NCBI GenBank assembly: GCA_020725145.1
Contig: DYFO01000002.1
Location: 7,777 to 71,776 of the forward strand
Direction: 5' to 3'
Length of the DNA: 64,000 nt
Source of the DNA: Symbiobacterium thermophilum
GTDB lineage: Bacteria > Bacillota > Sulfobacillia > UBA995
Both the position numbers and the translations under genes were made by a program. Shown piece after piece: positions 10,059-33,399 of the stretch (position 1 is its first letter; each line of letters opens with the position of its first letter). The notes under the pieces were generated by a model. It worked only from the letters and a program-made list of their open reading frames with translations. It ran no database searches and was not told the DNA's origin.

Positions 10059-10064
10059 GAGATT

Positions 10065-10094
10065 ATTCTACTCCGATGGCCTTGCGACTGTCAA
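10065..10094 (-). promoter_or_regulatory. Near-consensus sigma-A promoter (P1) just downstream of the guaB stop
   Basis: Minus strand reads TTGACA-18 nt-TAGAAT in a locally AT-rich patch of an otherwise very GC-rich window. Confidence 0.6.
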
Positions 10095-10127
10095 GGGGGT
10101 GAGGCGAAAATCCTTCCGGGTCCGCCC

Positions 10128-11927
<1,800 letters not shown>

Positions 11928-17888: not shown

Positions 17889-17889
17889 C

Positions 17890-18606: not shown

Positions 18607-18608
18607 GG

Positions 18609-19481
18609 TTACCCCTCGCCCTGCGGTGTTCGCGGCGCTGTGCCGGCGGCCTGGTCGCGGTGGCTGCGCACGAGGGACAGGTAACGGTCGGGCAGCCTGG
18701 GATCGAGCTGGGCCAGCTTCTCACATGCCAGTCGCCCGACGGCAGCGGCCGCCGGGCAAGAGGGCCGGCAGGGGACGAAGTCGCGCACGAAGTAGGCCAA
18801 CGGTTCACCGGCTTCCGCGGTCGCCTGCGGAAGCTCGCCTTCCCCCTTGCGTCTTGACCGCACGTAGGCCTGCACGCAGCAGTCCGGGTAGCCGAGGAGT
18901 TCCCCCATCGCCTGCACGTACTCCTCGGAACGTTCCTCCGGATACACGAAGAAGAGGGCAGGCATTCCCGGCCGGAAGACCGCCCTGGCCTCTTCACGAA
19001 TACGTTCTCTTAGCTCCATCAGCGAGGACAGCCTGCTTCCCACGGCCGCGTCGCGGTAAAGGAATAGCTCGCGAATGCTGGGCCGAACCTCGGCCTCAAG
19101 CGTTCGCAGGCCCAAGGCGGACGCCCATTGCCGGTGTGCGCGGTAAGTGGCCGACTGGCGTAGTACGGCCGTGACCACCTCCTGCAGGAGCATGGTCTTG
19201 TAGGCGACAGGACTCCGCATCGCCCTGAGAAACAGGTGACGCAACCGATTGAGCAGGTTCGCCCCCGACCCGAGTTCAGGATCGGTTCCCCGGTAATAGC
19301 GGCTTGCGAACCTCGCATCGATCTCCTGGCCGATCGCGGCCGCGTCGGGGAACTCGGCAGGGTAGGTGAGCATTCCCAGCCGTCTTACACCTGCGGCCAG
19401 CAGGAGGTAGTCGTCAAGCTTCACCCGCTCGCTAACCGCCTCGTCGGCCAGCAGGCGCGTGACGAGGTTCGGGTCGATCAT
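18609..19481 (-). CDS. Hypothetical Cys-motif protein (DUF483-like by recollection)
   Basis: 290 aa containing LLGYPDCCVQAY and FVPCRPSCPAAA. There is no catalytic family I can name. Gaps to both neighbours are only 2-3 nt. Confidence 0.55.
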   Translation of the reverse strand: MIDPNLVTRLLADEAVSERVKLDDYLLLAAGVRRLGMLTYPAEFPDAAAIGQEIDARFASRYYRGTDPELGSGANLLNRLRHLFLRAMRSPVAYKTMLLQEVVTAVLRQSATYRAHRQWASALGLRTLEAEVRPSIRELFLYRDAAVGSRLSSLMELRERIREEARAVFRPGMPALFFVYPEERSEEYVQAMGELLGYPDCCVQAYVRSRRKGEGELPQATAEAGEPLAYFVRDFVPCRPSCPAAAAVGRLACEKLAQLDPRLPDRYLSLVRSHRDQAAGTAPRTPQGEG

Positions 19482-19484
19482 CGT

Positions 19485-20657
19485 TCAGCCTCCTCCCGCG
19501 CGGAAGACCACCTCTCCCCGTATGACCGTCGCCACCACTTGCGTCTTGAGCTCGAACGGCGAACCGCTCCAGAGCACGAGGTCGGCCTCTTTCCCGGGCT
19601 CCACGCTGCCCAGGCGGTCGCCCACGCCGCAGATCGCGGCCGCATGCAGCGTGACCGCCCGCAGGGCATCCTGTTCCGCCATCCCTTCCCTGATCACCAT
19701 CGCCGCCACCAGCGGCAGGTGACGGATGGGGATCACGGGATGGTCGGTGCAGAGCGCCACCTTGACCCCGGCTCGGGCCAGGATCCCGGGAGTTGCCAGT
19801 GTACGGTCCTTGAGCTCCACTTTGGTCCGCGAGGTCAGGGACGGCCCTATCACGCAGGGCACCTGTCGGCGTGCCAGCTCCGCCGCGATCTTGTGGCCCT
19901 CGGTGCAGTGCTCAAGCGTTATCGGTATGTCGAACTCCGCGGCGATGCGCAGGGCGGTGAGGATGTCGTCCACGCGATGGGCGTGGATTCTAAGCGGTAT
20001 CTCCCTCCGGAGGACACGGACCACCGCCTCCATACGAAGATCACGTTCGGGTGCCTTGTCCGGGTCGCCGGCGCCTTTTTCGAGCTTCACCAGGTAGTTC
20101 TGGGCCTTCACCAGGGTCTCGCGCAATAACGCGGCCGTGCCCATGCGGGTGGAGGGAAGCTTCTTGAGCTGGCTGTAGACACGCTTGGGATTCTCCCCGA
20201 GCGCCGCCTTCAGACCCGACGGGGCCTTCAGGATCAGCTCCTCGAGGCTCGCGCCAGCGGTGCGGATGGTGGCCCCCTCTCCGCCTACCACGTTGGCGCT
20301 GCCCGGCGAGGACCATACCGCGGTGACCCCGGCGGTTACCGCGTCCTTGAAGCCCTGATCCTCGTGGTTGATGGCGTCGATCGCCCGCAGGTGAGGAGTG
20401 ACGGGCTCGGTGGCCTCGTTGACGTCGTTGCCTTCCCAGCCGAGGCCTTCTTCCCATATCCCCACGTGGGCGTGCGCGTCGATGAAACCGGGGGTGAGCA
20501 CGCAACCCCGCCCCTCGATCACCTCCACACCCTGGTCAGGGCGAAGCCCCTTGCCGACGGAGACGATCTTCCCGTCGCGTATCAGTACATCGGTTTTGTC
20601 GAGTACGCCGTTGCTTGCCGTCCACACCTCAGCCCCGGTTATCAGTAGACCTGCCAC
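19485..20657 (-). CDS. Metal-dependent amidohydrolase superfamily protein
   Basis: 390 aa with TPGFIDAHAHVG (HxH metal motif) and later RIHAH and CTDHPV motifs. The substrate is unknown. Confidence 0.8.
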   Translation of the reverse strand: MAGLLITGAEVWTASNGVLDKTDVLIRDGKIVSVGKGLRPDQGVEVIEGRGCVLTPGFIDAHAHVGIWEEGLGWEGNDVNEATEPVTPHLRAIDAINHEDQGFKDAVTAGVTAVWSSPGSANVVGGEGATIRTAGASLEELILKAPSGLKAALGENPKRVYSQLKKLPSTRMGTAALLRETLVKAQNYLVKLEKGAGDPDKAPERDLRMEAVVRVLRREIPLRIHAHRVDDILTALRIAAEFDIPITLEHCTEGHKIAAELARRQVPCVIGPSLTSRTKVELKDRTLATPGILARAGVKVALCTDHPVIPIRHLPLVAAMVIREGMAEQDALRAVTLHAAAICGVGDRLGSVEPGKEADLVLWSGSPFELKTQVVATVIRGEVVFRAGGG

Positions 20658-20675: not shown

Positions 20676-21803
20676 TCAGTTGACTTCCATGATCTCCACG
20701 TTGGCGCGTGGCACGGTGATGACGGTGCCGTCTGCAAGTTCTGCCCTGAGCACCCGCACCCTGGCTTCGGTTTCCACGATGGTAAGGTCGGCGGGAAGCT
20801 CGCGGACCACCGCCAGCTTGCCGAAGTGCGGCTCGCGGATCAGCCTAACCAGCGTCCCGGGTTCGAGGCCGGTGGCGGCAGGCGCGCCGACCTGCGTCCC
20901 GGCCGGCCGCGGTTCATGGGGAACGATCACCTCCGGCCGCAGCACCCCCGCCCGTATCTGGGTGGCGCCGTTGACGCACGCCACCTTGCCCTCCATCTCT
21001 CGTAGCAGCTGGAAAGTACGAGGAGCCATCGGCATGGGACCGAAGCCTTCCGTGACCACCAGCGTCACCGCGATGTCCTCGTGTCCGGTGACCGCCACCC
21101 CCAAGTCGTAACCCAGCAGGTCGATGAGGTCCCGATCTATGATGCCGCCCGCGACCAGTGCCGCCACTCCCACCTCGATGGCCCGGGTAATGGCCTCGCC
21201 GGATATCAGGGAACCGCCCACCACGACGCACCCGCGGTCCTTGGGTCCCAGATGGTCGGCCCGGAGTGGGGTCGCCGGATCGTCGACCGCCACCCGTAGG
21301 CGACCGTAGGTTTCTCCTCCCACACCGAAGATCCCCTGTACGAGAGCCCCTATCGTCTCCACCGCCACCCCTTCCCGGGCGAACACCTTGACCACCCGCC
21401 CCGCCAGGTAGGCGTTTACCTCCACGGGAAGCGGGGGCTCGCGCAGCGTTACCTGCCCGGTGACCGGAGAGATCATCTCGATCACTCCGTCCGCCGGCGA
21501 GCGCGCCTCCCTGTGCACGAGGCCCAGAAATGCACTGAAGCTGGCGATGACATCTCCGCGGCTTACGGCATCCCCAACCGCCACCGTCATGTGCGAGGGG
21601 ATTTCCGCCGGCTCCACCCCCAGGATGTTGGCGATGTTCACGGTATGGGGATCCCCGGGAACCTCGGTGCGGGCCACAGGGGTATCCGGGGTCACCGTAT
21701 CGCCCACCTCGACCAGGACTTCCCCCAACAGAGGGAGGCGGCGGATCTTGCGAATGGTCGTTTCCCGGGTCACCTTCAGTCCCGGGGTGTAAGCGTGGGC
21801 CAT
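20676..21803 (-). CDS. Barrel-sandwich-hybrid + KOW-like protein, copy B (uncharacterised)
   Basis: 375 aa. The N-terminus has a lipoyl/RnfC-N-like split motif (GEVLVEVGDTVTPDTPVAR ... GDAVSRGDVIASF ... SPADGVIEMI). The central part reads GGIIDRDL...VTEGFG...NGATQIRAGVLRPEVIVP. The C-terminus is KOW-like (GTLVRLIREPHFGKLAVV). Confidence 0.6.
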   Translation of the reverse strand: MAHAYTPGLKVTRETTIRKIRRLPLLGEVLVEVGDTVTPDTPVARTEVPGDPHTVNIANILGVEPAEIPSHMTVAVGDAVSRGDVIASFSAFLGLVHREARSPADGVIEMISPVTGQVTLREPPLPVEVNAYLAGRVVKVFAREGVAVETIGALVQGIFGVGGETYGRLRVAVDDPATPLRADHLGPKDRGCVVVGGSLISGEAITRAIEVGVAALVAGGIIDRDLIDLLGYDLGVAVTGHEDIAVTLVVTEGFGPMPMAPRTFQLLREMEGKVACVNGATQIRAGVLRPEVIVPHEPRPAGTQVGAPAATGLEPGTLVRLIREPHFGKLAVVRELPADLTIVETEARVRVLRAELADGTVITVPRANVEIMEVN

Positions 21804-21810
21804 CGGCCAC

Positions 21811-23676
21811 TCACTCCCTGGGCAGCGGGCCTGCCAGACGCGTCAGCAGGTCCGCGGGATAGGCATCGACGCACCTGAACCACTCCACCAGCTTGCGTCG
21901 GCGTTGCACGGGGTCCTCGGGCAGGACCAGGGGGCGTCCGCGGCCGTCCAGGATCAACCCGCAGACGCCACCGTGTACCTCGGTCTTGAGCTTTCTACCC
22001 TTGCCGGCCCCCGCATCCATGCCCCAGCCCGGAACGACCTCCACCGTGGCCTTCTCGCCGACGCCCAGCGGCAGGACCCGCAGCTGCCCGGCCAATACCT
22101 CCTCCTCGACCTCGCCGGCGCCGGGCAGTGTCCCCTTGAGGGTGAAGGCGCGTTCTCCCGGGCGTCCGTTGCCCACGGGAGAGATCGCCGTGCCCAGGTG
22201 GACCAAGCAGTCGCGTTCGAACACCTGGGCGGCCGGCTCGGGACTGACCGTCCACAGCACCCCGAGCTGTGGCATCATGAAGATGCTGTCGACCGCCAGA
22301 CGGGTGACCCCTTCCGGCTGGAAGGCATCCAGCAACATCAGCGCCGCCTGCATACGCCGTGGAGCGTGCGAAAGCGCGCCTCCGGAGCCGACGAGGATCC
22401 CAAGTTCCATGAGGTCGATGTGGGTCTGTCCGGTAGCCTCTTGATCGAAGGTCTCGCCCATGTGGCGCAGGCGCTGAATCCCTTTGAGACCTCGGGCCAG
22501 GGTCTTGTGGTGTTCCATCGCCAGGCGCAGCGCTTCGCGCGCCAGCGCCTGCTCGATCAGGAGCTCCTCCAGGGTCTGGGGGATGGTGGTGGGCCGGATC
22601 ATCTTGTTGCGAATACGGTTCTTCAGGTCGACGGGGTCGACGGAGATGGGAAGCCAGCGCATCACGTTCTCCAAGCCCGCCTCCAGCAGGACGTTGGAGA
22701 TGCTGTAGCTCATTCCGAGGTTAGCGCTGACCGTCCGGACGAACAGCTCCTGCTCGGGGCCGAAGACCGAGAAGACGTCGGTGGTCGCCCCTCCGATATC
22801 CACACCGATGACGCTGGTGCGGTAGAGCTTGGCCACGTTCTGCATCCCCAGCCCGACCGCACCGGGCGTGGGCATGATGGGGGCGCTCGCCCAGGACATG
22901 AGGGTGGCATAACCGGGCGCCTGTGCCATCACGTGCTCCAGGAACAACCGGTGGATCTCCTCACGTGCCGGCCCGAGCTCCTCGCGTTCCATGACCGGAC
23001 GGAGGTTCTCCACCACCCGGAGGTCGGACAGTCCTCCCAGTACCTTGCGTACATGGTCGCGAGCCTTGACGTTGCCGGCAAAGATAACCGGCAGCTTGAA
23101 CGAGGTTCCCAGACGTGGACGTGGCTGGGCGGCGGCGATCAGCTCCGCCACCTGAGCGACGTGAGAAATGGTGCCACCGTCTACCCCCCCCGACAGCAGG
23201 ATCATGTCGGGGCGCAGGTCGCGGATGCGCCGGATCTTCTCGTGCGGTCGCCGGCCGTCGTCGATGGCGATGACGTCCATCACTATGGCGCCGGCGCCCA
23301 GCGCCGCGCGCTGCGCGCTCTCGGCGGTCATGGTCTTGATTACGCCGGCGACCATCATCTGCAGTCCTCCACCGGCGCTTGAGGTGGACAGGAAGAGGTC
23401 GGTTCCCGTTCCGTCGGCACTCCGGGGACAAAGCACGCCTTGTTGCCCGAGCAGCTTCCTCCCGGTAAGCTCCTCGAGCTCTCTAACCGCATTTCGCACG
23501 CCCAAGGTGACGTCTTCGAAAGGCGCTTCCACCGTGGTAGGGGCCTCGCCGCGGGCAACCAGCCGGTAGCCGCCACTTTGCCGCTCGATCAGGATGGCTT
23601 TGGTGGTGGTGCTGCCGCAGTCGGTGGCCAGGATGGAGTTGACCGGCCCCCAATTGCCGGTCTTGCCGTCAGCCAA
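21811..23676 (-). CDS. GlmL/MutL-like actin-fold (ASKHA) ATPase, copy B
   Basis: 621 aa with phosphate-1 ILATDCGSTTTKA and phosphate-2 IGVDIGGATTDVFS. Overall it resembles the glutamate-mutase-L family but is about 150 aa longer, with a C-terminal beta-rich extension. TTG start with RBS AAGGGGGAAGG. Confidence 0.75.
   Translation of the reverse strand: MADGKTGNWGPVNSILATDCGSTTTKAILIERQSGGYRLVARGEAPTTVEAPFEDVTLGVRNAVRELEELTGRKLLGQQGVLCPRSADGTGTDLFLSTSSAGGGLQMMVAGVIKTMTAESAQRAALGAGAIVMDVIAIDDGRRPHEKIRRIRDLRPDMILLSGGVDGGTISHVAQVAELIAAAQPRPRLGTSFKLPVIFAGNVKARDHVRKVLGGLSDLRVVENLRPVMEREELGPAREEIHRLFLEHVMAQAPGYATLMSWASAPIMPTPGAVGLGMQNVAKLYRTSVIGVDIGGATTDVFSVFGPEQELFVRTVSANLGMSYSISNVLLEAGLENVMRWLPISVDPVDLKNRIRNKMIRPTTIPQTLEELLIEQALAREALRLAMEHHKTLARGLKGIQRLRHMGETFDQEATGQTHIDLMELGILVGSGGALSHAPRRMQAALMLLDAFQPEGVTRLAVDSIFMMPQLGVLWTVSPEPAAQVFERDCLVHLGTAISPVGNGRPGERAFTLKGTLPGAGEVEEEVLAGQLRVLPLGVGEKATVEVVPGWGMDAGAGKGRKLKTEVHGGVCGLILDGRGRPLVLPEDPVQRRRKLVEWFRCVDAYPADLLTRLAGPLPRE
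22271..22375. repeat. DNA-level conserved segment shared by the two GlmL-like genes (partner at 26406-26510)
   Basis: Hand alignment gives about 85% identity over ~110 nt (ggcatcatgaagatgctgtc...gcgccgcctg...). It encodes ...QAALMLLDAFQPEGVT.LAVDSIFMMP.LGVL. Confidence 0.7.
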
Positions 23677-23791
23677 AGGCCTTCCCCCTTAATGCTGGAT
23701 TGTTGCCGTGTCATCCGAAGGCTCAAGGTTCGCGCCGGCGGGGCCAAAACCTTCCCGGCCCACGGTCGGCGGTGGAAGAACCGGCTGGGGC

Positions 23792-24184
23792 CTACGAGCC
23801 GTCTTCCGGAGTATGGCCGGATCGTCCAAAGAGCCGGCTCCAGATGCCGCGCCATCCCCGCGGGTGTGGCGGGCCAGGAGGCCTGCCGGCCCGTTCGGTG
23901 TCCAGTCGCTCCTGGAGACGCTCGATCAAAAGGTCGAGGTTTTCCCTGTTCTCAAGGAGAAAGGCGATCTCGTCCACGCGCTTGGGGTCCCAGATGGCGC
24001 CGAGCACCGGAGAGAAGAAATGCACCGCCTGACTCCCTACGAAGCTCAGCGGGCGGTGGGCCTCGATCATGAGTATGGCCGGAGTGAGCAGACCGCCCCG
24101 GGCCGCACGCTCCACGATCCAGTCGATCAGCTCGTCCCGTCGCTCGGGTGTCAGTTCGTCGCCAGCGTCTGCTCGAGTGGGCAA
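23792..24184 (-). CDS. Small uncharacterised protein, copy B (paralogue of 24255-24575)
   Basis: 130 aa. IDWIVERAARGGLLTPAILMIEAHRPLSFVGSQAVHFFSPVLGAIW...LLENRENLDLLIERLQE aligns by eye with the neighbouring 106-aa protein. Confidence 0.6.
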   Translation of the reverse strand: MPTRADAGDELTPERRDELIDWIVERAARGGLLTPAILMIEAHRPLSFVGSQAVHFFSPVLGAIWDPKRVDEIAFLLENRENLDLLIERLQERLDTERAGRPPGPPHPRGWRGIWSRLFGRSGHTPEDGS

Positions 24185-24254
24185 CTGCCGTTCCTCCGTC
24201 CGGGAGCCTGATGCTCCAGGTCTTCGGCGGCGTCGAGGGTGTATCCTGCCCCGG

Positions 24255-24575
24255 TCACCGCCCTGCTTCCTGTTCCAGCCGGCTCAGCAGACGGTCAAGG
24301 TTTTGCCTGTCTTCCAGGAGACAGGCCACCCGCGCAAGGTAGGCTTCGTCAAGACCGGGCCGCACAAGGCAGGTGATCGTGGCCATGAGCGGACCGAATG
24401 CGTGCAGCCACTGCGCGGCAAAGAAGCCGAGTGGCCGACAGGCCTCGCCCAACAGCAGGGCCGGAACCGCCAGGCCTCGCGTGCGGACCGTATCGGCGAT
24501 CTGCTCGATGAGATCGTCGATTCTCGGGTCTGACAGGTGTCTTCCTCCGGCGACGGTGGTTTTCCGTCCCAGCAT
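24255..24575 (-). CDS. Small uncharacterised protein, copy A
   Basis: 106 aa. IEQIADTVRTRGLAVPALLLGEACRPLGFFAAQWLHAFGPLMATI...LLEDRQNLDRLLSRLEQE. It has a hydrophobic helical-hairpin-like core flanked by charged helices. Confidence 0.6.
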   Translation of the reverse strand: MLGRKTTVAGGRHLSDPRIDDLIEQIADTVRTRGLAVPALLLGEACRPLGFFAAQWLHAFGPLMATITCLVRPGLDEAYLARVACLLEDRQNLDRLLSRLEQEAGR

Positions 24576-24602
24576 GCACCCTCGACCCGCGGTCTATGCG
24601 CC

Positions 24603-25928
24603 CTAAAAGAGCTCCACGTTCGCTCGGGGCACCACCACCGTCGTCCTGTCCTCAAGCACGACCTCCGCGACCGGTACGCGGGCCTCGGTGGGCAGCTCAT
24701 ATGGCTGTGCCGGGATCGCCGCCACTACTCCGATGTGCCCGAAGTAGGGATCGTTCACGATGCGCACGCGCTGCCCCGGGGCCAGCTCCTCGTCGACCGT
24801 GGTTTCGGCGACGAGATCCCCCTCCCAGCCGGGGAACGGCACGATCACCTCGGGGCGGATAGCCCCTGCCCGGATCTGGGTGGCGCCGTTGATGCACGCA
24901 AGCCGGCCGTCGAGCGAACGCAAGGTACCGAACGCGGTCTCGCGCATGGCGAGCTCGCCGAAGCCCTCCATGAGGATCAGGGTCAGCGGGATATCCTCCT
25001 GTCCGGTTATGCCCACTCCTACCTTGATACCCAACGTTTCCACCACGTCCAGGTAGGCCGCGGTGGCGCCGATCAATCCCCTCACCCCACAGTCCAACGC
25101 CCGTCGCAGGGCCTCGCGGGTGATGGGCCCACCGGCCACCAGGATTCGTCCCTCATCCTCGGGAGAAATGGCATCAGGGCCGAGCGTGCCGTCGGTCACC
25201 ACCTTGAGCGGCCCGTGCCCCTCTCTTCCGACCCCGAAGACCCCGGTCAGTTTCACCCCGGGGCTCTGGACTACCGCGCCCCGACCGGGCAAGATCTCGG
25301 CCACCACCCCGTTGAGGTAGGCGCGGGTGACCACCTCCTTGAAGGGACGGGAGATGGTGACGTACCCGGTCTGGGTGTTGATCTCGGTGATCACTCCCGA
25401 GATGGGAGCCAGCGCCGTCTTGGTGAAGAAGGCCTGCGTCTCTCCCTTCTTCGCCACCACCTGGCCCCGCTTGACCTCATGTCCGATGCTCTTCATCATG
25501 TTCTTCATGAGGTCGCGGGGCTTGCAGCCGATCTCGAAAGCCACATCGAAGCTGACGGGCGGCTCCTCCTTGCCGAACTCCTCGCGGATGATCACCCTGC
25601 CCGAGCGTGCGGAGATCTCCTCGATCACGCCGTCGGTCGGTGAGGCATACTCCTTGCGGCCGTACAGGCCTCTTTCCGCCACCGCGATGATCTCGCGCAG
25701 CTTGACGCGGTCACCCACCTGGCGACGCATGGCCTGGGGCAGCAGGTCGGGTTCGATACCCAGGAGCCTCGCCACCGGAAGAACCCAGGGTATGCCGGGC
25801 TTGAGATCGATTCGGGCCACCACCGTGTCCGGTTGCACCCTTTGGCCCGGTTGAACCAGCACCTCACCCGGAAGCGGCAACTTGCGGACCTTTCTTATGA
25901 GACTGACCCGGAAGGTGGCCTCACTCAC
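24603..25928 (-). CDS. Barrel-sandwich-hybrid + KOW-like protein, copy A (with an extra inserted lipoyl-like segment)
   Basis: The track ORF runs to 26018. The likely start is GTG at 25928, overlapping the upstream stop as GTGA (VSEATFRVSLIRKVRKLPLPGEVLVQPGQRV...). It shares NGATQIRAGAIRPEVIVP and the KOW-like GQRVRIVNDPYFGHIGVV with copy B, and has about 65 extra residues (GHEVKRGQVVAKK...PISGVITEI). Confidence 0.6.
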   Translation of the reverse strand: MSEATFRVSLIRKVRKLPLPGEVLVQPGQRVQPDTVVARIDLKPGIPWVLPVARLLGIEPDLLPQAMRRQVGDRVKLREIIAVAERGLYGRKEYASPTDGVIEEISARSGRVIIREEFGKEEPPVSFDVAFEIGCKPRDLMKNMMKSIGHEVKRGQVVAKKGETQAFFTKTALAPISGVITEINTQTGYVTISRPFKEVVTRAYLNGVVAEILPGRGAVVQSPGVKLTGVFGVGREGHGPLKVVTDGTLGPDAISPEDEGRILVAGGPITREALRRALDCGVRGLIGATAAYLDVVETLGIKVGVGITGQEDIPLTLILMEGFGELAMRETAFGTLRSLDGRLACINGATQIRAGAIRPEVIVPFPGWEGDLVAETTVDEELAPGQRVRIVNDPYFGHIGVVAAIPAQPYELPTEARVPVAEVVLEDRTTVVVPRANVELF

Positions 25929-27787
25929 CGGAGTCCGCCCCCTTTCCCCCGCAGCGGGCTGTCCTGGACGAACCTCTGCAGGGCTTCCGTCGGGTAGGCG
26001 TCCAGTCTTTGCATCCATTCCAGCAGCTTGAGCCGTCGCTTGCGGTCATCCCCCGGAAGCTCGATCGGGCGGCCCCGGGCATCCACGATCACCCCTACCA
26101 GCCCTCCGGACAGCTCGGTGACCAGCGGCCGACCCCGCCCCGCCCCCACGTCGAAGCCACCGGCCGGCAGGATCTCCGCCCGTGCCGTCTGCCCCGCGTC
26201 CAGCGGCAGGCGCACCAGTTCGCCGAAGGTCACCCGGGCTTCCTCGGTCCTGCCGTCCGGGAGGTGGAGCCGCACGGTAGCCACGAGCTGGCCCTCACGT
26301 CCGCGACCCACCGGGGCGATGCAGGTGCCCAGACGCACCAGGCAGTCCAGGTCAAACACCTCGGCGGCGATCTCGGGGTAGGCGGTGGAGAGCACACCCA
26401 GGTGCGGCATCATGAAGATGCTGTCCACCGCGAGCTGGGTCACCCCTTCGGGCTGGAAGGCGTCCAGCAGCATCAGCGCCGCCTGTGACCGCCGCGGGGC
26501 GTGCGACAGCACGCCACCGCTGCCGACCAGCATCCCAATACGCTTGAGGTCGATAACCTCTTCGCCAGCCGACTTAAAGATCTTCTGCTGCGTGCGCCAG
26601 CCGGCCGCGACCTCTTCCTTCTCGACCTTGCGGGCAAGGCTCTTGTGGTGCTGAAAGGACAGCCGCAGTGCCTCGCGGGCCAAAGCCTGCTCCAGCACGA
26701 GGCAGGAGAGGGTTTGCGGCAGCGTGGTGGGTCGCACCATCTTGTTGGCCACCCAGTCGGAGAAAGCGTGCCCGTCGACCTCGAAGGGGATCCAACGCAG
26801 TATGTTGGCGATCCCTGCCTCTTCCAGCACGTTGCAGATGCTGTAGCTCATGCCGAGATTGGCGCTTACCGTCCGGGTGAAGGTACCGTCGAAGTTGGAG
26901 AAGACGTCGGTGGTCGCGCCGCCGATGTCTACCCCAATGATGTTGGTCCGGTACCGTTCGGCCATCACCATGATGATGCGGCCCACCGCGCCCGGCGTCG
27001 GCATGATGGTCACGTCAACCCACTCCATGAGCTCGGCATATCCGGGGGCCTGGGCCATCACGTGGTTCATGAACAGGTCGTGGATCGCCTCGCGGGCGGG
27101 GCCCAGGTTCTCCACGTCGTGGCGGGGGCGCAGGTTTTCCACCACGTGCACGTCGAGCGTGGCCCCGGCGATCGCCTCGACGAGATCCACCGCGTCGCGG
27201 TTTCCGGCGTACACCAGTGGCAGCTTGTAGGTGGCCCCAAAGCGCGGCTGGGGGCTGGCCTGCACGATGGTCTCGGCGATAGCCGCCAGGTGGGTCACCG
27301 AGCCGCCGTCCACCCCGCCGGACATCAGGATGATGTCGGGTCTGAGTTCGGTGATGCGGGTGATCTGCTCCGACGTCGAGCGCCCGTCATCGACCGCTAT
27401 CACGTCCAGCACCACCGACCCCGCTCCCAGCGCCGCGCGGTGGGCGCTGGAAGCGCTGACCGTGCTGACCAGTCCGGCGACCATCATCTGCAGGCCACCA
27501 CCGGCGCTGGAGGTGGACACGTAGTAATCTACCCCGTCCTTGCCCTTCCGCGGACGCAAGAGCCTGCCCTCGGGAGTCAACAGGCGCCGCCCGCTGAGCT
27601 CCTCGAGGCGACGGATGGCCTTACGTACGCCGATCATCACGTTTTCCCAGGGAGCTTCCACGGTAGTGGGCATCTCCCCGCGGAAGGTCAGGCGGTAGTG
27701 GCCGTCCCGTTTCTCGATGAGCAGGGCTTTGGTGGTCGTGCTTCCCACGTCGGTTGCCAGGATGGTCTCTGGCGTTTTGTGGTCCAC
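25925..27787 (-). CDS. GlmL/MutL-like actin-fold (ASKHA) ATPase, copy A
   Basis: 620 aa with ILATDVGSTTTKA and IGVDIGGATTDVFS. About half of the residues are identical to copy B by eye along the full length. GTG start. Confidence 0.75.
   Translation of the reverse strand: MDHKTPETILATDVGSTTTKALLIEKRDGHYRLTFRGEMPTTVEAPWENVMIGVRKAIRRLEELSGRRLLTPEGRLLRPRKGKDGVDYYVSTSSAGGGLQMMVAGLVSTVSASSAHRAALGAGSVVLDVIAVDDGRSTSEQITRITELRPDIILMSGGVDGGSVTHLAAIAETIVQASPQPRFGATYKLPLVYAGNRDAVDLVEAIAGATLDVHVVENLRPRHDVENLGPAREAIHDLFMNHVMAQAPGYAELMEWVDVTIMPTPGAVGRIIMVMAERYRTNIIGVDIGGATTDVFSNFDGTFTRTVSANLGMSYSICNVLEEAGIANILRWIPFEVDGHAFSDWVANKMVRPTTLPQTLSCLVLEQALAREALRLSFQHHKSLARKVEKEEVAAGWRTQQKIFKSAGEEVIDLKRIGMLVGSGGVLSHAPRRSQAALMLLDAFQPEGVTQLAVDSIFMMPHLGVLSTAYPEIAAEVFDLDCLVRLGTCIAPVGRGREGQLVATVRLHLPDGRTEEARVTFGELVRLPLDAGQTARAEILPAGGFDVGAGRGRPLVTELSGGLVGVIVDARGRPIELPGDDRKRRLKLLEWMQRLDAYPTEALQRFVQDSPLRGKGGGLR
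26406..26510. repeat. DNA-level conserved segment shared by the two GlmL-like genes (partner at 22271-22375)
   Basis: See the partner entry; about 85% identity by hand alignment. Confidence 0.7.
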
Positions 27788-27828
27788 TGCCTCACGGTTC
27801 CCCCTCCGGCCGCATGCCCTGGTTTGAA

Positions 27829-27860
27829 GGGAAGCCCACCCCGCCGGGAGTGGGCTTCCC
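27829..27860 (-). other. Strong intergenic stem-loop between the membrane-gene block and the ATPase block
   Basis: GGGAAGCCCAC-(10 nt)-GTGGGCTTCCC, an 11-bp perfect stem in the 105-nt gap. No U-tract follows on the minus strand, so it is not a canonical terminator. Confidence 0.5.
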
Positions 27861-27892
27861 CTGCAATCAGACTATCTCCCAACCGAACCGCC

Positions 27893-28510
27893 TTACTGGA
27901 TGAGCCCCAGCCATTCCTGTAGCACGTACTGCAGGCGCCCCAGGAACAGGTTGTAGCGGAACAGCACCGTGTTGCCGAACGCCGCCCCCAGGGCTATCAG
28001 GATCACGACCTTGCCGAACTGCGACGCGTACCCCATCGCGGGGTGTTCCTTGCTGACGGTGAAGAAGAAATACACCAGCGCGGAGAGGATGCAGATGAAG
28101 AAGAGCAGCTGGTTCACCACATTGCCCGCGCCGAAGTTCACGAAGCTGGCCGTTACCTGACCCAGGAACGGCTTGGCGTTGAAGGCCAGGTAGTACCCGG
28201 CGCCATACCCGATGTACGCCGACATGGGGTAACGGGCCAGCCAGGAGACGCTCGGGATGAACCGGGTATACAGAAGCAAGCCCAGGACGATGGGGATGAC
28301 GTATGCCCACCTGCCCTGCCCGATCATCTCGTCCTTGATCACGGGATGGATGTAGCTGTAGTAGTAGTAGGGAACACTCCAGCCGGTCGCCAGGGCGACC
28401 AGCACGTGCTCCGCCAGACGGTAGATGGGGTTGTCGCGATACAGGAAGGACCAGATGGCAAGCGTCCCGAGGGCTGCCGCCCATACCGCGGGATCTTTTG
28501 CGATGCTCAC
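27893..28510 (-). CDS. Polytopic integral membrane protein (about 6 hydrophobic segments), uncharacterised
   Basis: 205 aa, rich in aromatic and hydrophobic runs (LGTLAIWSFLY, VLVALATGWSVPYYYY, VIPIVLGLLLY, LLFFICILSALVYFFF, VVILIALGAAFG). I recognise no transporter signature. Confidence 0.65.
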   Translation of the reverse strand: MSIAKDPAVWAAALGTLAIWSFLYRDNPIYRLAEHVLVALATGWSVPYYYYSYIHPVIKDEMIGQGRWAYVIPIVLGLLLYTRFIPSVSWLARYPMSAYIGYGAGYYLAFNAKPFLGQVTASFVNFGAGNVVNQLLFFICILSALVYFFFTVSKEHPAMGYASQFGKVVILIALGAAFGNTVLFRYNLFLGRLQYVLQEWLGLIQ

Positions 28511-28561
28511 GCTATTTCACCTCCCCGTCCGCCACGGGACCGGTAGAGATTGCCGTTCGGT

Positions 28562-29386
28562 TCACTTGCGCGGGCTCGTCAGGTAACCGATGTTACCGAT
28601 GACCACCAGGAAGAACACCAGCAACGCGGCCAGCGATTGCGCGTCGGTGCCGGACGCTCCCCGGCCGGGTTTGCCGACCAGGATCTCGTACTCGGCTGCC
28701 CCCCGCAACCCGCCAATCTGGCCCGTGAACTGACCCGACTCCACGTAGGGCTTGTTCTCGGGGATGGACATGGTCAAGGTGGCCACGCTCATCGGTATCC
28801 CCTTCTCGGCACTGACGATACCGAGGTACTCCCTGCTGCCGGGGCTCCCCGTCTCAACCACGATGATGTGGCGGAAACCGCTGGCCTTGTCCAGGGCGTT
28901 GACTCCCCGCATGATGGAGTAGTCGGCCAGCGGCTTGCCGAAGTGATCGACGCCCCCGGCTCCCTCCATGATATTGGAGGTCATCAGCCTGAGGTTGGTG
29001 GTGGTTCCGGGCTTGTGCCCGAGGTTGATCCAGTCCACACCATACTGCTTTCCGTACTGCTCGGCTATGGGAGCAACGATGTCCTGGACGATCGTCGGGC
29101 CCCGGAGCCACATGCCGTAGACGACCGGCTTGAGGCCCTTTTGGAAAAGGTGGTGGAAAATCGCAACCACCTGCGGATCGAGTTCCGGCTTGGAAGATAC
29201 GTCGTACTCCGCCCCTACCCACACGAGGGAGCCCGCCGGCAGGGCGTCGAGCGCGTTGTAGACGGTCCTGACGTCGCTGCCGATCTTGACGGGAAGCCCG
29301 AGTGGAAACAGGAAGGCGACGATACCGACCACGAACACCAAAGCGTAAATCGGACGGCGGCCTAGCGCCTGAAGCCTTTGCATCAA
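28562..29386 (-). CDS. Bitopic membrane protein: N- and C-terminal TM helices flanking a ~210-aa soluble domain, uncharacterised
   Basis: 274 aa. N-terminal IYALVFVVGIVAFLFPLGL, C-terminal LAALLVFFLVVIGNIGYL. The central domain has no motif I recognise. Confidence 0.65.
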   Translation of the reverse strand: MMQRLQALGRRPIYALVFVVGIVAFLFPLGLPVKIGSDVRTVYNALDALPAGSLVWVGAEYDVSSKPELDPQVVAIFHHLFQKGLKPVVYGMWLRGPTIVQDIVAPIAEQYGKQYGVDWINLGHKPGTTTNLRLMTSNIMEGAGGVDHFGKPLADYSIMRGVNALDKASGFRHIIVVETGSPGSREYLGIVSAEKGIPMSVATLTMSIPENKPYVESGQFTGQIGGLRGAAEYEILVGKPGRGASGTDAQSLAALLVFFLVVIGNIGYLTSPRK

Positions 29387-29413
29387 GTCACACCTCCTTC
29401 CCCGGTGAGAGTG

Positions 29414-30040
29414 CTACCGGCCTCCGACGCCGCCCAGGTATGCCCGCTCAAGCCCGAGCATGACCCGCAGGGCGGTGGCGAAGCCGCCGAGATAGATCCC
29501 AAGGATGATGCCACGCATACCGGCGGTGTTGGGGATGTTGAGGATCCACGACCTGACGTCTCCCCAATAGCCCCAGATCGCCTCGCCGATGGGCGCCGAC
29601 CCCAGGAGGATGATCATCGCCGCCAGCAGCATGACCGTTGCCTCCCAGGTTCTTACCTTGAAAGCCCGGTAGGCGGCGGTGGTGATGAAGAAGGCGATGA
29701 TCCCGTACAGGGTCGCGTCCATGGGCGCGAAGATGTTGTCGAAGATCCACTTGTGGTGGAAGCCCTCGGTGGTGGTGATCAGCCCGAGGATGCCGTAGCC
29801 GTAGAGCACCAACAGCAGCACGATGCTGTTGTAGTAGCCGGGGGCCCGTCGCATGATCTTCTTGCCGTGGATCAAGGTGAGATTGATGACGCCGAGGCCG
29901 ATGGCGATGGCCCACATGAGGTTGCTCCACTTGTCCAGGACGTCAAGCCATCCCAGATTGTAGATGTGGAAGAAGAACTGCGAAAGAATCACGGCCAGGG
30001 CAGCCACCACGGTCAGCAGCATCGGGAACTCCTTACGCAT
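29414..30040 (-). CDS. Polytopic integral membrane protein (about 6 hydrophobic segments), uncharacterised
   Basis: 208 aa with MLLTVVAALAVILSQFFF, LMWAIAIGLGVINLTLI, IVLLLVLYGYGILGLI, LYGIIAFFITTAAY, VMLLAAMIILLG and GIILGIYLGGFATAL. Confidence 0.65.
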   Translation of the reverse strand: MRKEFPMLLTVVAALAVILSQFFFHIYNLGWLDVLDKWSNLMWAIAIGLGVINLTLIHGKKIMRRAPGYYNSIVLLLVLYGYGILGLITTTEGFHHKWIFDNIFAPMDATLYGIIAFFITTAAYRAFKVRTWEATVMLLAAMIILLGSAPIGEAIWGYWGDVRSWILNIPNTAGMRGIILGIYLGGFATALRVMLGLERAYLGGVGGR

Positions 30041-30112
30041 CGGAACACCTCCTCACTGCCCAAGTCTGGCCAGAGCGGCCCGCTGTTGCCGGCGGGCAGC
30101 CGGAGCGCGTGT

Positions 30113-30919
30113 TCACTTGGTCAGGATGCCCGTGAGCCAGTTGGTCTCGCCAACGTGCGCCAGGACGGTGCCCAGGATGATCAGGGCGAACACCCCGATG
30201 CGGGCCAGGTCCTGCCCCACCACCGTCCCCGTCAACACCGGTTCCTTCGAAAGGTACGCGCTGGCGGCGTACATCTCCTCGCCGATCAGCGTGTAGTCGC
30301 AGGCCGCGACGAAGAACGGGATCTGGTGGGTGTTGGCGGTGGCGCCGATCTGGATGGCCCCGAGGTAGGCTCCGCCCTCGGCGAACAACAGCGACTCGGC
30401 CCAGAAAGCCCCGAACATGATGTTGGCCGCCGGGCGCTCCCGCTCGTACATCCCGAGGACGGACGCAGCGTAGGCGAACTGCTCCGGCGAATGGTAGGTG
30501 ATGTCGTCGGGGTTGAAAGCATCGGGCCGGCCTGCCTCCAGGTACGCCTGCCGGATGACTTCCTGGTTGATGGCCATGACGAAAGCTTCCACGTTGGTCT
30601 GCAGCAGGCGGGTGTCATACTGGGCGCAGCGCTTGGCCACATGTCCGAGCATGGCGAAGGAAGCGAGCGTCTGTACGTTGGTGGCTTCGCCCAGACCCGG
30701 GGTGTAGTGCACGGGGCGACCCATCTCGGTGGCCCGACCGATGGCCTCGTCGATGGCCTCCAGGCCGGGGATCTTCCGGATCTCGGGGATCCTCTGGCCG
30801 GCGCGGGCCCGCTGGATCATGATGTAGACGAGGGCGCAGAAAACCAACAGGGCGAAGAAGGGGGCCACGTTGCCGGGCACAAAGACTCCCAGGGCTGGCG
30901 CGTCTTGCGCTAGCAGCAT
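30113..30919 (-). CDS. Bitopic membrane protein: TM - ~190-aa soluble domain - TM, uncharacterised; first gene of the membrane block
   Basis: 268 aa. N-terminal VAPFFALLVFCALVYIMI, C-terminal IGVFALIILGTVLAHV. ATG preceded by GTGAGGAGGTG. Confidence 0.65.
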   Translation of the reverse strand: MLLAQDAPALGVFVPGNVAPFFALLVFCALVYIMIQRARAGQRIPEIRKIPGLEAIDEAIGRATEMGRPVHYTPGLGEATNVQTLASFAMLGHVAKRCAQYDTRLLQTNVEAFVMAINQEVIRQAYLEAGRPDAFNPDDITYHSPEQFAYAASVLGMYERERPAANIMFGAFWAESLLFAEGGAYLGAIQIGATANTHQIPFFVAACDYTLIGEEMYAASAYLSKEPVLTGTVVGQDLARIGVFALIILGTVLAHVGETNWLTGILTK

Positions 30920-30952: not shown

Positions 30953-30988
30953 GGAACAAAACAACAATTCGGTAAAGACCACCGAACT
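30953..30988 (-). terminator. Weak terminator-like hairpin with U-rich tail in an AT-rich intergenic patch
   Basis: Minus strand reads UUCGGU-ggucuuu-ACCGAA followed by UUGUUGUUUUGUU. The stem is only 6-7 bp, so read-through is likely. Confidence 0.3.
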
Positions 30989-32690: not shown

Positions 32691-32821
32691 CTCCCGGGCC
32701 GGTAGGAGGCCGGGGCGGGCCTCCCCTGCACGGGGAGACCCGCCCCGGGACCATGCCCTCGTGAAGCCCTCCCCGCCCCCGGGAATTGCTTCGGGGCGGC
32801 TTGCCCTTATCCTCCACGGGG

Positions 32822-33322: not shown

Positions 33323-33399
33323 GCCCGCACACCTCCGCCCTCCTATCCTACTCCCTGCTGGATAGACGAGTCCGGCCCTGCGAAGTTTCCCGGATCACG

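Follow-up and report, generated by a model that had tools for sequence, protein, structure and literature searches.

A widespread, undescribed and putative two-module gene system of a four-protein membrane cassette and GlmL/MutL-type ATPases in Symbiobacterium thermophilum

Introduction

GlmL/MutL proteins are annotated as chaperones in glutamate mutase reactivation, and the only role ascribed to this ATPase family is that of a chaperone of a soluble B12 enzyme (PMC4682846). Two long members of the family are encoded in a 64,000-nucleotide stretch of the Symbiobacterium thermophilum genome (hereafter the window), within a block of ten genes that also encodes four membrane proteins. The initial annotation of this block proposed a membrane machine in which five component classes each occur as a diverged pair, forming a pseudo-twofold hetero-oligomer.

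Results

The ten genes, all on the minus strand, are real. GC3 is of the coding type across all ten ORFs (0.72-0.89), independent gene calls on Logan contigs agree with them, and the intergenic spacings (72, 27, 51, 105, -4, 27, 70, 115 and 7 nt) bear out the tight packing first described. The tightly spaced co-directional run is nevertheless longer than the block on both sides, with DUF4438, BsuPI, DUF362-Fer4 and a 150-aa protein upstream and, downstream, an amidohydrolase (19485-20657) at +18 nt and a DUF483-like Cys-motif protein (18609-19481) at +3 nt, both on the minus strand and assigned with Pfam. Because the run continues past the ten genes, the limits of the system were set by comparative data and not by strand or spacing. 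The two downstream genes, which lie directly after BarB (18609..20657), are possible lineage-specific accessories: Bar is followed by the amidohydrolase in loci L005, L013 and L090, and the DUF483-like gene comes directly after Bar in about six metagenome loci. In other metagenome loci it is a few kb away at most, and in L166/L167 no more than 3 kb; neither gene was found beside the system outside Bacillota-like loci. A minus-strand terminator-like hairpin (30966..30988) in the 107-nt gap upstream of M1 may mark the end of the upstream transcription unit; this evidence is weak, as the total of terminator-like sites in the pattern scan equals the shuffled expectation. The flanking genes provide a housekeeping context, including purine and shikimate biosynthesis and TsaDE, and no family was dominant among 150 adjacent genes.

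The first four genes form what we refer to as the membrane cassette. M1 (30113..30919, 268 aa) is bitopic, with TM1 at about residues 17-40, TM2 at about 227-256 and a DUF6754 domain between them (Pfam PF20539, 3.4e-99). M2 (29414..30040, 208 aa) is polytopic, with about six TM helices by family-averaged hydropathy. M3 (28562..29386, 274 aa) is bitopic according to hydropathy and charge distribution, its N- and C-terminal TM helices enclosing a domain of about 215 aa, and M4 (27893..28510, 205 aa), placed by hydropathy and cassette position, is polytopic and rich in aromatic residues. These are four unrelated families, each present once per cassette and in a fixed order: M2, M3 and M4 follow M1 in order in 89 of the 91 M1 copies that had enough downstream sequence, M2 being invariably next after M1 and M4 always the fourth gene. 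This order is kept in Bacillota, Zixibacteria, Poribacteria, Planctomycetota, Ignavibacteria, WOR-3 and others. M3 homologues are uniform in length (about 271 aa) and we found no relatives of M3 in Pfam or the PDB; all 31 M2 members and all 31 M4 members scanned were without a Pfam family. One apparent M2-M3 fusion was rejected as an ORF-calling error. Neither M2 nor M4 has a conserved charged mid-membrane residue that would suggest ion translocation.

The cytoplasmic side of the cassette is predicted from homologues of M1 that carry a signal peptide and an FN3 or β-propeller domain ahead of TM1; basic residues also follow TM1. On this basis the near-invariant α/β domain of M1 is predicted to be cytoplasmic and the variable heads to face outward. 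Elsewhere these heads comprise FN3 domains, coiled coils, β-rich modules and BamB/PQQ-like propellers, the last of which precede TM1 in 15 of 65 long forms, and the proteins reach 1272 aa; the Bacillota form is headless. The AF2 model of M1 (pLDDT 87) has a six-stranded parallel α/β domain between the two TM helices. Foldseek returned no PDB match for it at E<=1e-3. No other part of the cassette is as conserved as this domain, and M1 as a whole is 45-64% identical to its homologues in other phyla. Basic residues at both termini of M3 predict, by the positive-inside rule, that its domain faces outward.

Outside Bacillota there are often two or three anciently diverged cassettes in tandem. They are ancient paralogues with position-specific orthology, M1 being 71-89% identical between genomes as opposed to 50-60% between tandem cassettes of the same genome. 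The outward domain of M3 is the most divergent part among tandem cassettes (35-50% within a genome), and the cytoplasmic part of M1 stays constrained.

The remaining six genes encode two copies of a soluble trio, which consists of a small protein, a 620-aa ATPase and a barrel-sandwich/KOW protein (Bar). The ATPases AtpA (25925..27787, 620 aa) and AtpB (21811..23676, 621 aa) match Pfam MutL (PF13941) at 4e-119 and 2.4e-125 (399 and 419 bits), and they carry the actin-fold phosphate motifs noted initially (DVGSTTTK/DCGSTTTK, GVDIGGATTD and GSGG(V/A)LSHAP); AtpA has a C-terminal extension of about 140 aa. A and B copies alike keep the ASKHA phosphate-1, phosphate-2 and adenosine motifs at 90% conservation or more, which makes both ATPases look active. 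Conservation across phyla is very strong (67% mean column identity), and a profile search with AtpB found no PDB relative.

BarA (24603..25928, 441 aa; gene call on Logan contig L003), a barrel-sandwich/swivelling-like/KOW protein, overlaps AtpA by 4 nt. A segment of about 75 residues is duplicated within it, as seen in two overlapping BLASTP alignments to BarB, and the insert is visible in the family alignment. Pfam matches of the Bar proteins are weak (RnfC_N, Biotin_lipoyl and KOW; for BarA, RnfC_N at 3.5e-4 and KOW at 0.012). BarB (20676..21803, 375 aa) is the generic copy, with barrel-sandwich, RraA-like α/β and KOW parts in an AF2 model of pLDDT 88, for which Foldseek returned T. maritima NusG (4.4e-5), RraA (6e-3, TM 0.46 on target) and Spt5 KOW5 (TM 0.8). 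The earlier barrel/KOW description is borne out by these matches. BarB is 47-60% identical across phyla and its relatives form more than 8000 clusters at 90% identity, those named being called 'hypothetical'. One JGI entry of the family has been auto-named NusG. The small proteins smA (24255..24575, 106 aa) and smB (23792..24184, 130 aa) are soluble. There was no Pfam or PDB match for smA, and smB combines a charged tail with a hydrophobic core that is conserved. The trio usually starts with an smB homologue, immediately followed by the ATPase gene in many phyla.

Only part of the doubling described in the initial annotation is present. Each of the three soluble classes consists of two true paralogues (AtpA/AtpB, 58% identity; BarA/BarB, 38-46%; smA/smB, 37%, E=5e-17). 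M1 and M3 are both two-TM-plus-domain proteins, and M2 and M4 are alike in size; however, topology class is all that either pair has in common, as BLASTP found nothing and hhalign gave probabilities of 0.6% for M1/M3 and 1.0% for M2/M4. Moreover, with the domain of M1 predicted to be cytoplasmic and that of M3 extracytoplasmic, the two could not be pseudo-symmetric mates. The A/B duplication is confined to the soluble trio and to a Bacillota subclade; elsewhere a single trio occurs with one to three cassettes, so a fixed 2:2 stoichiometry does not hold. Small-gene number also does not follow ATPase number (in L013 a single ATPase goes with two small genes, in L164 two ATPases go with one). A pseudo-twofold machine built from five doubled classes is therefore very unlikely, and its membrane part is largely refuted. 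Within the duplication, A-type orthologues are 65-72% identical to AtpA versus 54-57% to AtpB, and the ATPases that other phyla have in single copy are closer to AtpB (60-67% identity) than to AtpA (54-58%); by these comparisons AtpB is the generic, ancestral-type copy and AtpA a Bacillota-specific paralogue.

The family membership of the ATPases raises the possibility that M1-M4 make up a corrinoid-dependent membrane enzyme or transporter, which the ATPases would reactivate or load, and the M1 domain does have a Rossmann-like α/β fold. We nevertheless regard this scenario as extremely improbable. No B12-binding or mutase family occurs in the ten proteins, in the flanks or in homologous loci with precomputed Pfam annotation, in agreement with the earlier observation that these ATPases lie outside a B12-mutase context. 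ATPase scores fall below every GlmL-family cut-off (for AtpA, 214 bits against an NCBIfam GlmL cut-off of 475), and M1 has no invariant histidine. The 50 Foldseek matches listed for M1 include no B12-binding domain, and the sole B12 enzyme among them is a diol dehydratase at rank 37 (probability 0.38).

Discussion

Both modules are conserved across many, mostly uncultured, bacterial phyla and are often adjacent; the gene neighborhood extends well beyond the S. thermophilum genome. Of the fully flanked loci, about 40-45% have the two modules side by side: Bar or the trio lies within 10 kb of M1 in 24 of 53 M1-centered genome loci, and 8 of 20 Bar-centered metagenome loci include an M1 cassette. 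At least seven phyla contribute such loci, which come from Bacillota, Ignavibacteria, Zixibacteria, Eisenbacteria, Coatesbacteria and Planctomycetota as well as from unclassified lineages. By a rough estimate, chance adjacency in a 3-6 Mb genome would be 1-2%. Order and orientation vary, the trio being upstream of, downstream of or divergently transcribed from the cassette (L117, L122, L128, L150). Adjacency is far above chance and persists through rearrangements. The modules also co-occur without being adjacent: one contig of a MAG (GCA_021791495.1) carries a double trio and, 31 kb away, a cassette, and the MAG has two further cassettes elsewhere. No fusion protein joining cassette and trio was found.

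We favor, tentatively and at close to an even chance, the possibility of a transport or mechanotransmission machine whose membrane cassette is powered or regulated by the ATPase trio, docked on M1. One module would be a fixed four-protein complex in the cytoplasmic membrane and the other a soluble cytoplasmic complex of ATPase, Bar and perhaps the small protein, bound to the cassette from the cytoplasmic side, with the conserved domain of M1 as the most plausible docking site. The cycle of ATP binding and hydrolysis would then pass via the membrane subunits to the outward domain of M3 and the heads of M1. One cytoplasmic energizer may be shared by several specialized cassettes, a pattern suggested by the occurrence of one trio with one to three diverged cassettes in which M3 diverges and M1 is constrained. 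In the Bacillota lineage, tandem duplication of the trio probably led to an A/B hetero-oligomer. The data show gene content and order, conservation, paralogy, the conserved ATPase motifs and the domain folds; membrane topology, docking, energy coupling and direction of work are what we infer. The ATP-driven membrane machine proposed initially is a better-motivated hypothesis than before.

A less likely, but still sizeable, possibility is that two independent systems are often neighbors: a self-sufficient M1-M4 complex (passive, PMF-driven or structural) and a soluble enzyme or chaperone trio, carrying out for example an ATP-dependent hydantoinase/oxoprolinase-like reaction or remodeling another enzyme. 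Consistent with this idea: (i) 29 of the 53 fully flanked cassettes have no trio within 10 kb, as is the case for all of the approximately 20 Poribacteria loci; (ii) Bar mostly travels with the ATPase, whose gene immediately precedes it in 44 of 53 testable loci, but about nine loci have Bar with no ATPase beside it; (iii) in L164-L166, which are close relatives, an A+B trio occurs in the same synteny, its neighbors being peptidase genes (C26, S58, M20, M42) and no cassette lying nearby, and an amidohydrolase follows Bar in several Bacillota loci; and (iv) the ATPases resemble Hydantoinase_A (Pfam) and their enzyme-like conservation is also compatible with a soluble enzyme acting on a substrate of its own. 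Against this, adjacency far exceeds chance, recurs in at least seven phyla and outlasts rearrangement, and the cassette's most conserved part is a predicted cytoplasmic domain whose only evident partner is the trio. The peptidase and amidohydrolase neighbors are confined to related Bacillota and may simply be inherited synteny.

Transmembrane signaling, in which the M1 heads and M3 would bind an external ligand or envelope component and the cytoplasmic domain of M1 would relay to ATPase-Bar as a nucleotide-dependent switch, could account for heads that vary greatly over a constant cytoplasmic domain, and KOW/SH3-like and barrel-sandwich domains are typical interaction modules. We consider it unlikely, given that no output domain (kinase, cyclase or DNA-binding) is in the system or consistently beside it, that M1 is headless in Bacillota and that sensing does not usually call for as many as four conserved membrane subunits.

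In comparing the locus with known systems, the named analogues for ASKHA proteins tethered to the membrane are MreB-MreCD and PilM-PilNO. By this analogy the ATPases might polymerize as an actin-like cytoskeletal element anchored by M1-M4; their ASKHA fold, a weak MreB-like_C match (E=0.017) and bitopic and polytopic partners loosely like MreC/MreD or PilN/PilO are in keeping with this. We find the analogy highly doubtful, as the ATPases have no significant match to the MreB, FtsA, ParM or PilM families, are consistently paired with Bar and belong to the GlmL/hydantoinase branch, in which we know of no filament formers. As in the initial annotation, no described system was matched. Searches of the ten proteins and flanks (about 14-38.5 kb) gave no B12-mutase, ABC, P-loop, MFS or secretion family, the Rnf signature was not found and PADLOC defence models were negative. 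No characterized family emerged for M1-M4, Bar or the small proteins, PDB searches, which covered the M1 core, M3, Bar, the small proteins and the ATPases, gave no relative, and we found no paper on DUF6754, PF13941 or the cluster. GlmL belongs to a B12-mutase context, whereas AtpA and AtpB, although of the GlmL/MutL type, stand outside any such context, in what may be a widespread and hitherto undescribed two-module system.

Organization of the locus

The system consists of a cassette of four membrane proteins and two copies, A and B, of a trio made up of a small protein (sm), a GlmL/MutL-type ASKHA ATPase (Atp) and a protein with barrel-sandwich, RraA-like and KOW parts (Bar). All ten genes are on the minus strand, in the order M1 (30113-30919, 268 aa), M2 (29414-30040, 208 aa), M3 (28562-29386, 274 aa), M4 (27893-28510, 205 aa), AtpA (25925-27787, 620 aa), BarA (24603-25928, 441 aa), smA (24255-24575, 106 aa), smB (23792-24184, 130 aa), AtpB (21811-23676, 621 aa) and BarB (20676-21803, 375 aa). 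The initial annotation had described ten tightly packed genes with spacings from a 4-nt overlap to about 115 nt, and this description is borne out by coordinates, third-position GC (GC3), independent gene calls and gap lengths. From M1 to BarB the intergenic gaps are 72, 27, 51, 105, -4, 27, 70, 115 and 7 nt; GC3 of the ten ORFs is 0.72-0.89, a real-gene signature in a region with many spurious ORFs around; and identical proteins occur on three Logan metagenome contigs, where gene calls made independently coincide with the ten ORFs. Spacing alone does not delimit a ten-gene unit because closely packed minus-strand genes carry on beyond either end, upstream of M1 with genes for a 150-aa two-TM protein, DUF362-Fer4, BsuPI and DUF4438 proteins, and downstream of BarB with an amidohydrolase (+18 nt) and a DUF483-like protein (+3 nt).

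The locus lies in a window of ~66% GC without a break in composition; signs of a mobile element, of a defence island or of anomalous composition were absent. A pattern scan for promoters and terminators gave counts equal to the shuffled expectation. Beyond the DUF483-like gene, two plus-strand ORFs of 123 and 349 aa (17322-18684, GC3 ~0.8) interrupt the minus-strand run and are putative genes; the longer has no Pfam match and the pair runs 76 nt into the 3' part of the DUF483-like gene.

The membrane cassette

M1 matches DUF6754 (Pfam PF20539) at 3.4e-99 and 331.6 bits against a gathering score of 27. All 65 of its long-form relatives match it too, and the family carries no functional annotation. 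In an AF2 model built on a 65-sequence alignment (pLDDT 87, pTM 0.78), a six-stranded parallel α/β domain is predicted to sit between two TM helices, the second of which is followed by a short helix at the C-terminus. A Foldseek search of the PDB with this model gave nothing at E<=1e-3; generic Rossmann and TIM matches (E>=6e-3, TM<=0.35 on the query) were treated as no relative.

An exhaustive search found 2,465 representatives of the M1 family at 50% identity, many of them 400-1272 aa long with the DUF6754 core at the C-terminal end. M1 proteins of diderm phyla have a signal peptide and an FN3 domain ahead of the first TM helix (TM1), 15 of the 65 long forms have a β-propeller (BamB/PQQ-like) and 3 of the 65 a Pfam fn3 match, and some family members have C-terminal coiled-coil or β-rich extensions; the Bacillota-form M1 of the window is without any such extension. 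Since the signal peptide, FN3 and propeller heads lie before TM1 and basic residues come after it, the DUF6754 domain is predicted to be cytoplasmic, with both termini of M1 outside. The domain is conserved in the motifs GRATEMGRP, RPDAF and AACDYxLIGEE and in many invariant acidic and basic residues. The outward-facing extensions of the representatives P0246-P0389 (e.g. P0341, at 1272 aa, P0345, P0302, P0336 and P0356) are extremely variable and include unassigned β-rich repeats.

In M3 the N- and C-termini are basic and the ~215-aa middle domain is acidic, so that the middle domain should face outward. Searches with an M3 profile returned homologues of a uniform ~271 aa, with no extra domains and unnamed save for one JGI auto-name. 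M2 and M4 are ~205-aa polytopic proteins with conserved charged residues at the predicted membrane boundaries and none mid-membrane. There was no Pfam or NCBIfam match for M2, M3, M4, smA or smB, and when 31 members from each of the families of M2, M3 and M4 were scanned against Pfam, only scattered single-member noise came up. PDB sequence and profile searches with M1 and M3 returned nothing beyond FN3 matches to the N-terminal head of M1. An apparent M2-M3 fusion at one locus (L039) was rejected, as it contains a stop codon.

The ATPases, Bar and the small proteins

Both ATPases match Pfam MutL (PF13941) far above its cut-off of 27 bits (AtpA, 399 bits, 4e-119; AtpB, 419 bits, 2e-125). The actin-fold phosphate motifs noted in the initial annotation are intact: across 26 sequences, the A and B copies included, the phosphate-1, phosphate-2 and adenosine motifs (ATDxGSTTTKA, GVDIGGATTD and GSGGVLSHAP) show 90% conservation or more. 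Judged by these motifs, AtpA and AtpB are ASKHA superfamily proteins and putative ATP hydrolases. Their β-rich C-terminal ~140 aa form an extra domain that is conserved within the long-ATPase family only, and profile searches of the PDB found no relative of the ATPases. Long "ATPase" ORFs at L008 and L058 were set aside as start-codon or read-through artefacts in high-GC DNA.

For Bar and the small protein no PDB relative was found by sequence, profiles included, and the only Pfam matches of Bar, to RnfC_N, Biotin_lipoyl and KOW, are sub-threshold. The AF2 model of BarB (pLDDT 88) has N-terminal β-rich barrel-sandwich domains, an RraA-like α/β domain and a C-terminal KOW/SH3-like barrel; in Foldseek the α/β domain matches RraA (probability 0.99, TM 0.46 on the target) and the barrel matches Spt5 KOW5 (TM ~0.8).

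It had been proposed that each component class is a diverged pair, forming a pseudo-twofold hetero-oligomer. For the trio the pairing holds, as AtpA/AtpB (58% identity), BarA/BarB (38-46%) and smA/smB (37%) are true paralogues by BLASTP, BarA being set apart from BarB by internal duplication of a ~75-residue barrel-sandwich segment. The membrane proteins do not follow suit: M1 with M3 and M2 with M4 show no BLASTP similarity, their hhalign profile-profile probabilities are 0.6% and 1.0%, and the predicted topologies of M1 and M3 are opposite. At the level of sequence the membrane part is four different proteins and not two pairs, which contradicts the strict twofold form for that part. The A/B duplication is itself confined to a set of related Bacillota-like loci. 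Given that the single-copy ATPases of other phyla are 60-67% identical to AtpB and 54-58% to AtpA, AtpB is the generic copy and AtpA a lineage-specific paralogue. Across loci the number of small proteins does not follow that of ATPases.

Conservation and linkage of the two modules

A DUF6754-centred scan with one genome per species found a relative in at least 585 species, and the best 80 loci were examined; loci were searched by tblastn with the proteins of the window. Of 91 testable M1 copies, 89 were followed by M2, M3 and M4 in fixed order and on the strand of M1. Cassettes were found in Bacillota (including a Symbiobacterium MAG and Fermentithermobacillaceae), WOR-3, Ignavibacteria, Poribacteria, Zixi-, Eisen-, Coates-, Stahl- and Edwardsbacteria, and Planctomycetota. 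The two exceptions, at L082 (a Stahlbacteria MAG, 10001-10711) and L024 (13315-13983, minus strand), have no recognizable M2-M4 after M1; the genes that follow in L082 (370, 423, 287 and 206 aa) may have diverged strongly or may be different partners.

Many non-Bacillota loci (L027, L028, L050, L076 and others) have two or three tandem cassettes. The tandem copies are ancient paralogues, and each position in the tandem has its own orthologues in other genomes; M1 is 71-89% identical between genomes and 50-60% within them, and M3 57-84% between and 35-50% within. One Bacillota locus (L023:4085-14180) also has three tandem cassettes. In M1 and M3 the two outer cassettes are 100% identical and the middle one 75-76%; the triplet reflects either a repeat in the assembly or a duplication that is very recent.

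The order small protein-ATPase-Bar is likewise conserved. In a reciprocal Bar-centred scan of metagenome contigs the ATPase was directly upstream of Bar at 44 of 53 testable loci, often with the small protein ahead of it, while ~9 loci had Bar without an adjacent ATPase. The trio was present at 24 of the 53 M1-centred loci with a full 10 kb on both sides, and the cassette at 8 of the 20 Bar-centred loci flanked by 6 kb or more on each side, lying upstream or downstream of the trio or divergently oriented. The two modules adjoin at only part of the loci. In one MAG (GCA_021791495.1) a double trio lies 31 kb from a cassette on the same contig and two further cassettes are on other contigs, so that trio and cassette co-occur without adjacency. 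Among ~20 Poribacteria loci there was none with the trio within 10 kb of the cassette. At L164-L166 an A+B trio sits in the synteny of the window (Peptidase_C26 and S58 upstream; UDG, TsaE and TsaD downstream) with no cassette nearby.

It may be, then, that cassette and trio are functionally independent neighbours, and both the many unlinked loci (29 of the 53 M1-centred loci are without the trio within 10 kb) and the conservation of the ATPase, which is enzyme-like at a mean column identity of 67%, are consistent with this. Nevertheless, the neighbourhood comparison across phyla for which the initial annotation had called establishes that the genes of the two modules are linked far above chance in at least seven phyla despite rearrangement, and such linkage is a classical signature of functional coupling. 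No cultured carrier was found; cluster look-ups for relatives of the Symbiobacterium-MAG and Ignavibacteria-MAG proteins returned MAG "hypothetical proteins" only.

Genes around the system

Outside the Bacillota clade the flanks are housekeeping genes that differ between phyla (purine biosynthesis, shikimate kinase, DHQ synthase, dehydrogenases). The flanks inspected in Fermentithermobacillaceae, Poribacteria and WOR-3 hold genes of the purine and shikimate pathways along with unrelated enzymes. When 150 non-redundant genes next to the modules were assigned to Pfam families, no family dominated, the top counts being amidohydrolase 4, NusG_II 3, Big_1 3 and DUF483 3. In Bacillota-like loci Bar is repeatedly followed at once by an amidohydrolase and a DUF483-like protein with a Cys motif, and their genes may be lineage-specific accessories or inherited synteny. 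In the window the DUF483-like protein (18609-19481, minus strand, 290 aa) carries the four-cysteine motif GYPDCC...CRPSC. Its gene comes directly after Bar at L084, L085, L089, L091 and L152, within a few kb at L088, L090, L154 and L166/L167, and once between M4 and the ATPase (L113); the protein may be an accessory component.

Upstream of the system (31476-34281, minus strand) are DUF4438 and DUF362/4Fe-4S protein genes. DUF4438 is again upstream at several Bacillota loci (among L004, L008, L011, L013 and L088) and DUF362 occurs in L011 and L166; the association is either a link to the system or mere synteny. One of these loci (L013, CAYQIY010000004.1) is labelled "uncultured Pseudomonadota bacterium", and its cassette, trio, DUF4438 and twin amidohydrolases are Bacillota-like; the bin may be mislabelled, or the region may be a transferred one.

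The gene directly downstream of a lone Bar gene encodes a PorV/PorQ-family outer-membrane protein (NCBIfam NF033709; 135 and 121 bits vs a cut-off of 90) at L124:11070-12014 and L159:5650-6531, and by similarity to these probably also at L156:5395-6276; none of the three Bar genes has an adjacent ATPase. Elsewhere in the window a glmS ribozyme (43394-43546, minus strand; RF00234, 71.7 bits, E=1.7e-14) is directly followed by a 610-aa ORF (41455-43287, minus strand) that is presumably glmS.

A possible shared energizer

The overall pattern suggests a shared cytoplasmic energizer or regulator for specialized membrane cassettes. Our reasons for reading it in this way are that: (i) one trio accompanies one to three anciently diverged cassettes; (ii) the M3 domain and the M1 heads vary while the cytoplasmic domain of M1 is almost invariant; and (iii) both ATPase paralogues keep their catalytic motifs. 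On the strength of this pattern we propose an ATP-driven transport or mechanotransmission machine in which an ATPase-Bar(-small) complex would dock on the cytoplasmic domain of M1; its docking, coupling, direction and substrate are all things that we infer. In its full form, to which we give clearly less than an even chance, the proposal is that cytoplasmic-membrane machines of a new class draw their power from an actin-fold (ASKHA, GlmL-type) ATPase and not a P-loop NTPase. One ATPase-Bar-small energizer would serve one to several interchangeable four-subunit cassettes whose outward domains (M3 and the FN3/β-propeller heads of M1) do transport or mechanical work in the envelope, and the machine would be a housekeeping one in many phyla, most of them uncultured, and would be missing from classical model organisms.

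The system is notable because it is broad and conserved. M1 and Bar each comprise >8,000 clusters at 90% identity; the families reach across Bacillota, the FCB and PVC groups and candidate phyla; and identities between phyla (45-64% for M1, ~60% for the ATPase) are like those of core bioenergetic proteins. If the coupling is true, it would represent a new mode of energizing a membrane complex, by an ASKHA ATPase of the reactivase/hydantoinase branch, and the first role of the GlmL/MutL family outside B12 enzymes. If instead cassette and trio are independent, the cassette, as a fixed complex of four membrane proteins whose cytoplasmic domain is invariant and whose periplasmic heads can be swapped, would still be unexplored envelope biology, in lineages dominant in sediments, sponges and digesters. 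The proposal is directly testable, with defined genes, two confident models (M1 and BarB) and clear predictions.

Comparison with known systems

In having one cytoplasmic ATPase module with several diverged membrane modules, and outward-facing domains between two TM helices, the system is similar in its logic to modular transporters with a shared energizer (group II ECF transporters) and to mechanotransmission ABC systems (MacB, FtsEX, LolCDE). The analogy is a functional one only; here the ATPase is actin-fold and the four membrane subunits are unrelated. Consistent with the earlier view that the block lacks any ABC or P-loop signature, the ten proteins have no Pfam or NCBIfam match to P-loop/ABC, ECF (EcfT, S-component), FtsX or MacB families at E<=0.1, and ABC and ECF families are absent from those listed for M2, M3 and M4 members. 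With Rnf/Nqr there is a likeness in size between M2/M4 and RnfA/E (which, like NqrD/E, are six-TM proteins of ~200 aa), and the matches of Bar to RnfC_N and NQRA_N, the N-terminal barrel-sandwich domain of RnfC/NqrA (3.5e-4 to 0.03), are sub-threshold, at 21 and 18 bits vs 25.6 and 14.9 vs 25. The Rnf-Nqr membrane family is not among the Pfam matches listed at E<=0.1 for 31+31 M2/M4 members, no Fe-S or flavin-binding family was found, and NqrA and RnfC are absent from the 50 Foldseek matches listed for BarB.

The system could also be read as a signalling, cytoskeletal or B12-related one, but these readings have less support. The sole match to MreBCD/FtsA/PilMNO is to MreB-like_C (E=0.017, 16 bits vs 27.8), with no matches to partner families. 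None of the ten proteins matched a PADLOC-DB model of anti-phage defence at E<=0.01, and the genomic context is housekeeping. By these family matches the system falls outside Rnf/Nqr, ABC/ECF, MreBCD/PilMNO and defence. The view that the architecture matches no described system was borne out as far as the searches reached: full-text literature searches on DUF6754, PF13941, GlmL-like proteins and related topics gave no description of it, and the public names are "hypothetical protein" or "DUF6754 domain-containing protein", bar one or two automatic JGI names. Within the limits of the searches made, we rate the system as categorically new.

Closer relationships are seen for the ATPases. Pfam describes MutL as related to the Hydantoinase A/oxoprolinase branch, and AtpA and AtpB have weak local Hydantoinase_A (2.3e-5) and Hydant_A_N matches at the nucleotide-binding motifs. 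The hydantoinase, oxoprolinase and acetone- and acetophenone-carboxylase systems differ, however, in their Hydantoinase_B-type partner, which is absent here, the partner proteins being entirely different. In the DdrAB/PduGH and EutA reactivases an ASKHA ATPase is combined with a swivelling-type α/β domain, whose counterpart here would be the RraA-like middle domain of the separate Bar; RraA belongs to the fold class of the DdrA swivelling domain. The analogy is no more than a working one: there was no sequence match to DDR or EutA families, no reactivase among the 50 Foldseek matches listed for BarB and no B12 enzyme nearby.

The nearest named relatives are GlmL/MutL and Or-4, a GlmL-related protein of ornithine degradation (PF13941; NF040745, NF040744, TIGR01319), with which the ~470-aa ASKHA core of AtpA and AtpB aligns end to end. 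GlmL/MutL is described in one line as a chaperone involved in reactivating glutamate mutase (PMC4682846). AtpA and AtpB fall far short of the cut-offs of the GlmL equivalog (NF040745, 214/220 bits vs 475), of NF040744 (206/215 vs 600) and of the TIGR01319 subfamily (153/162 vs 204). They are 620/621 aa long and the 459-position GlmL-model match ends at ~477-488, whereas GlmL is ~460 aa without the extra domain. GlmL/MutL is encoded beside B12-dependent mutase subunits (glmS/glmE or oraS/oraE) and AtpA and AtpB are not: as first noted, the block is without a B12 mutase, and Pfam scans of the ten proteins, the window flanks (~14-38.5 kb) and L164-L167 found no B12-binding or mutase family. By profile scores AtpA and AtpB are members of the MutL superfamily and not GlmL proper, and, unlike GlmL, the ATPase is usually paired with Bar and often adjoins a membrane cassette.
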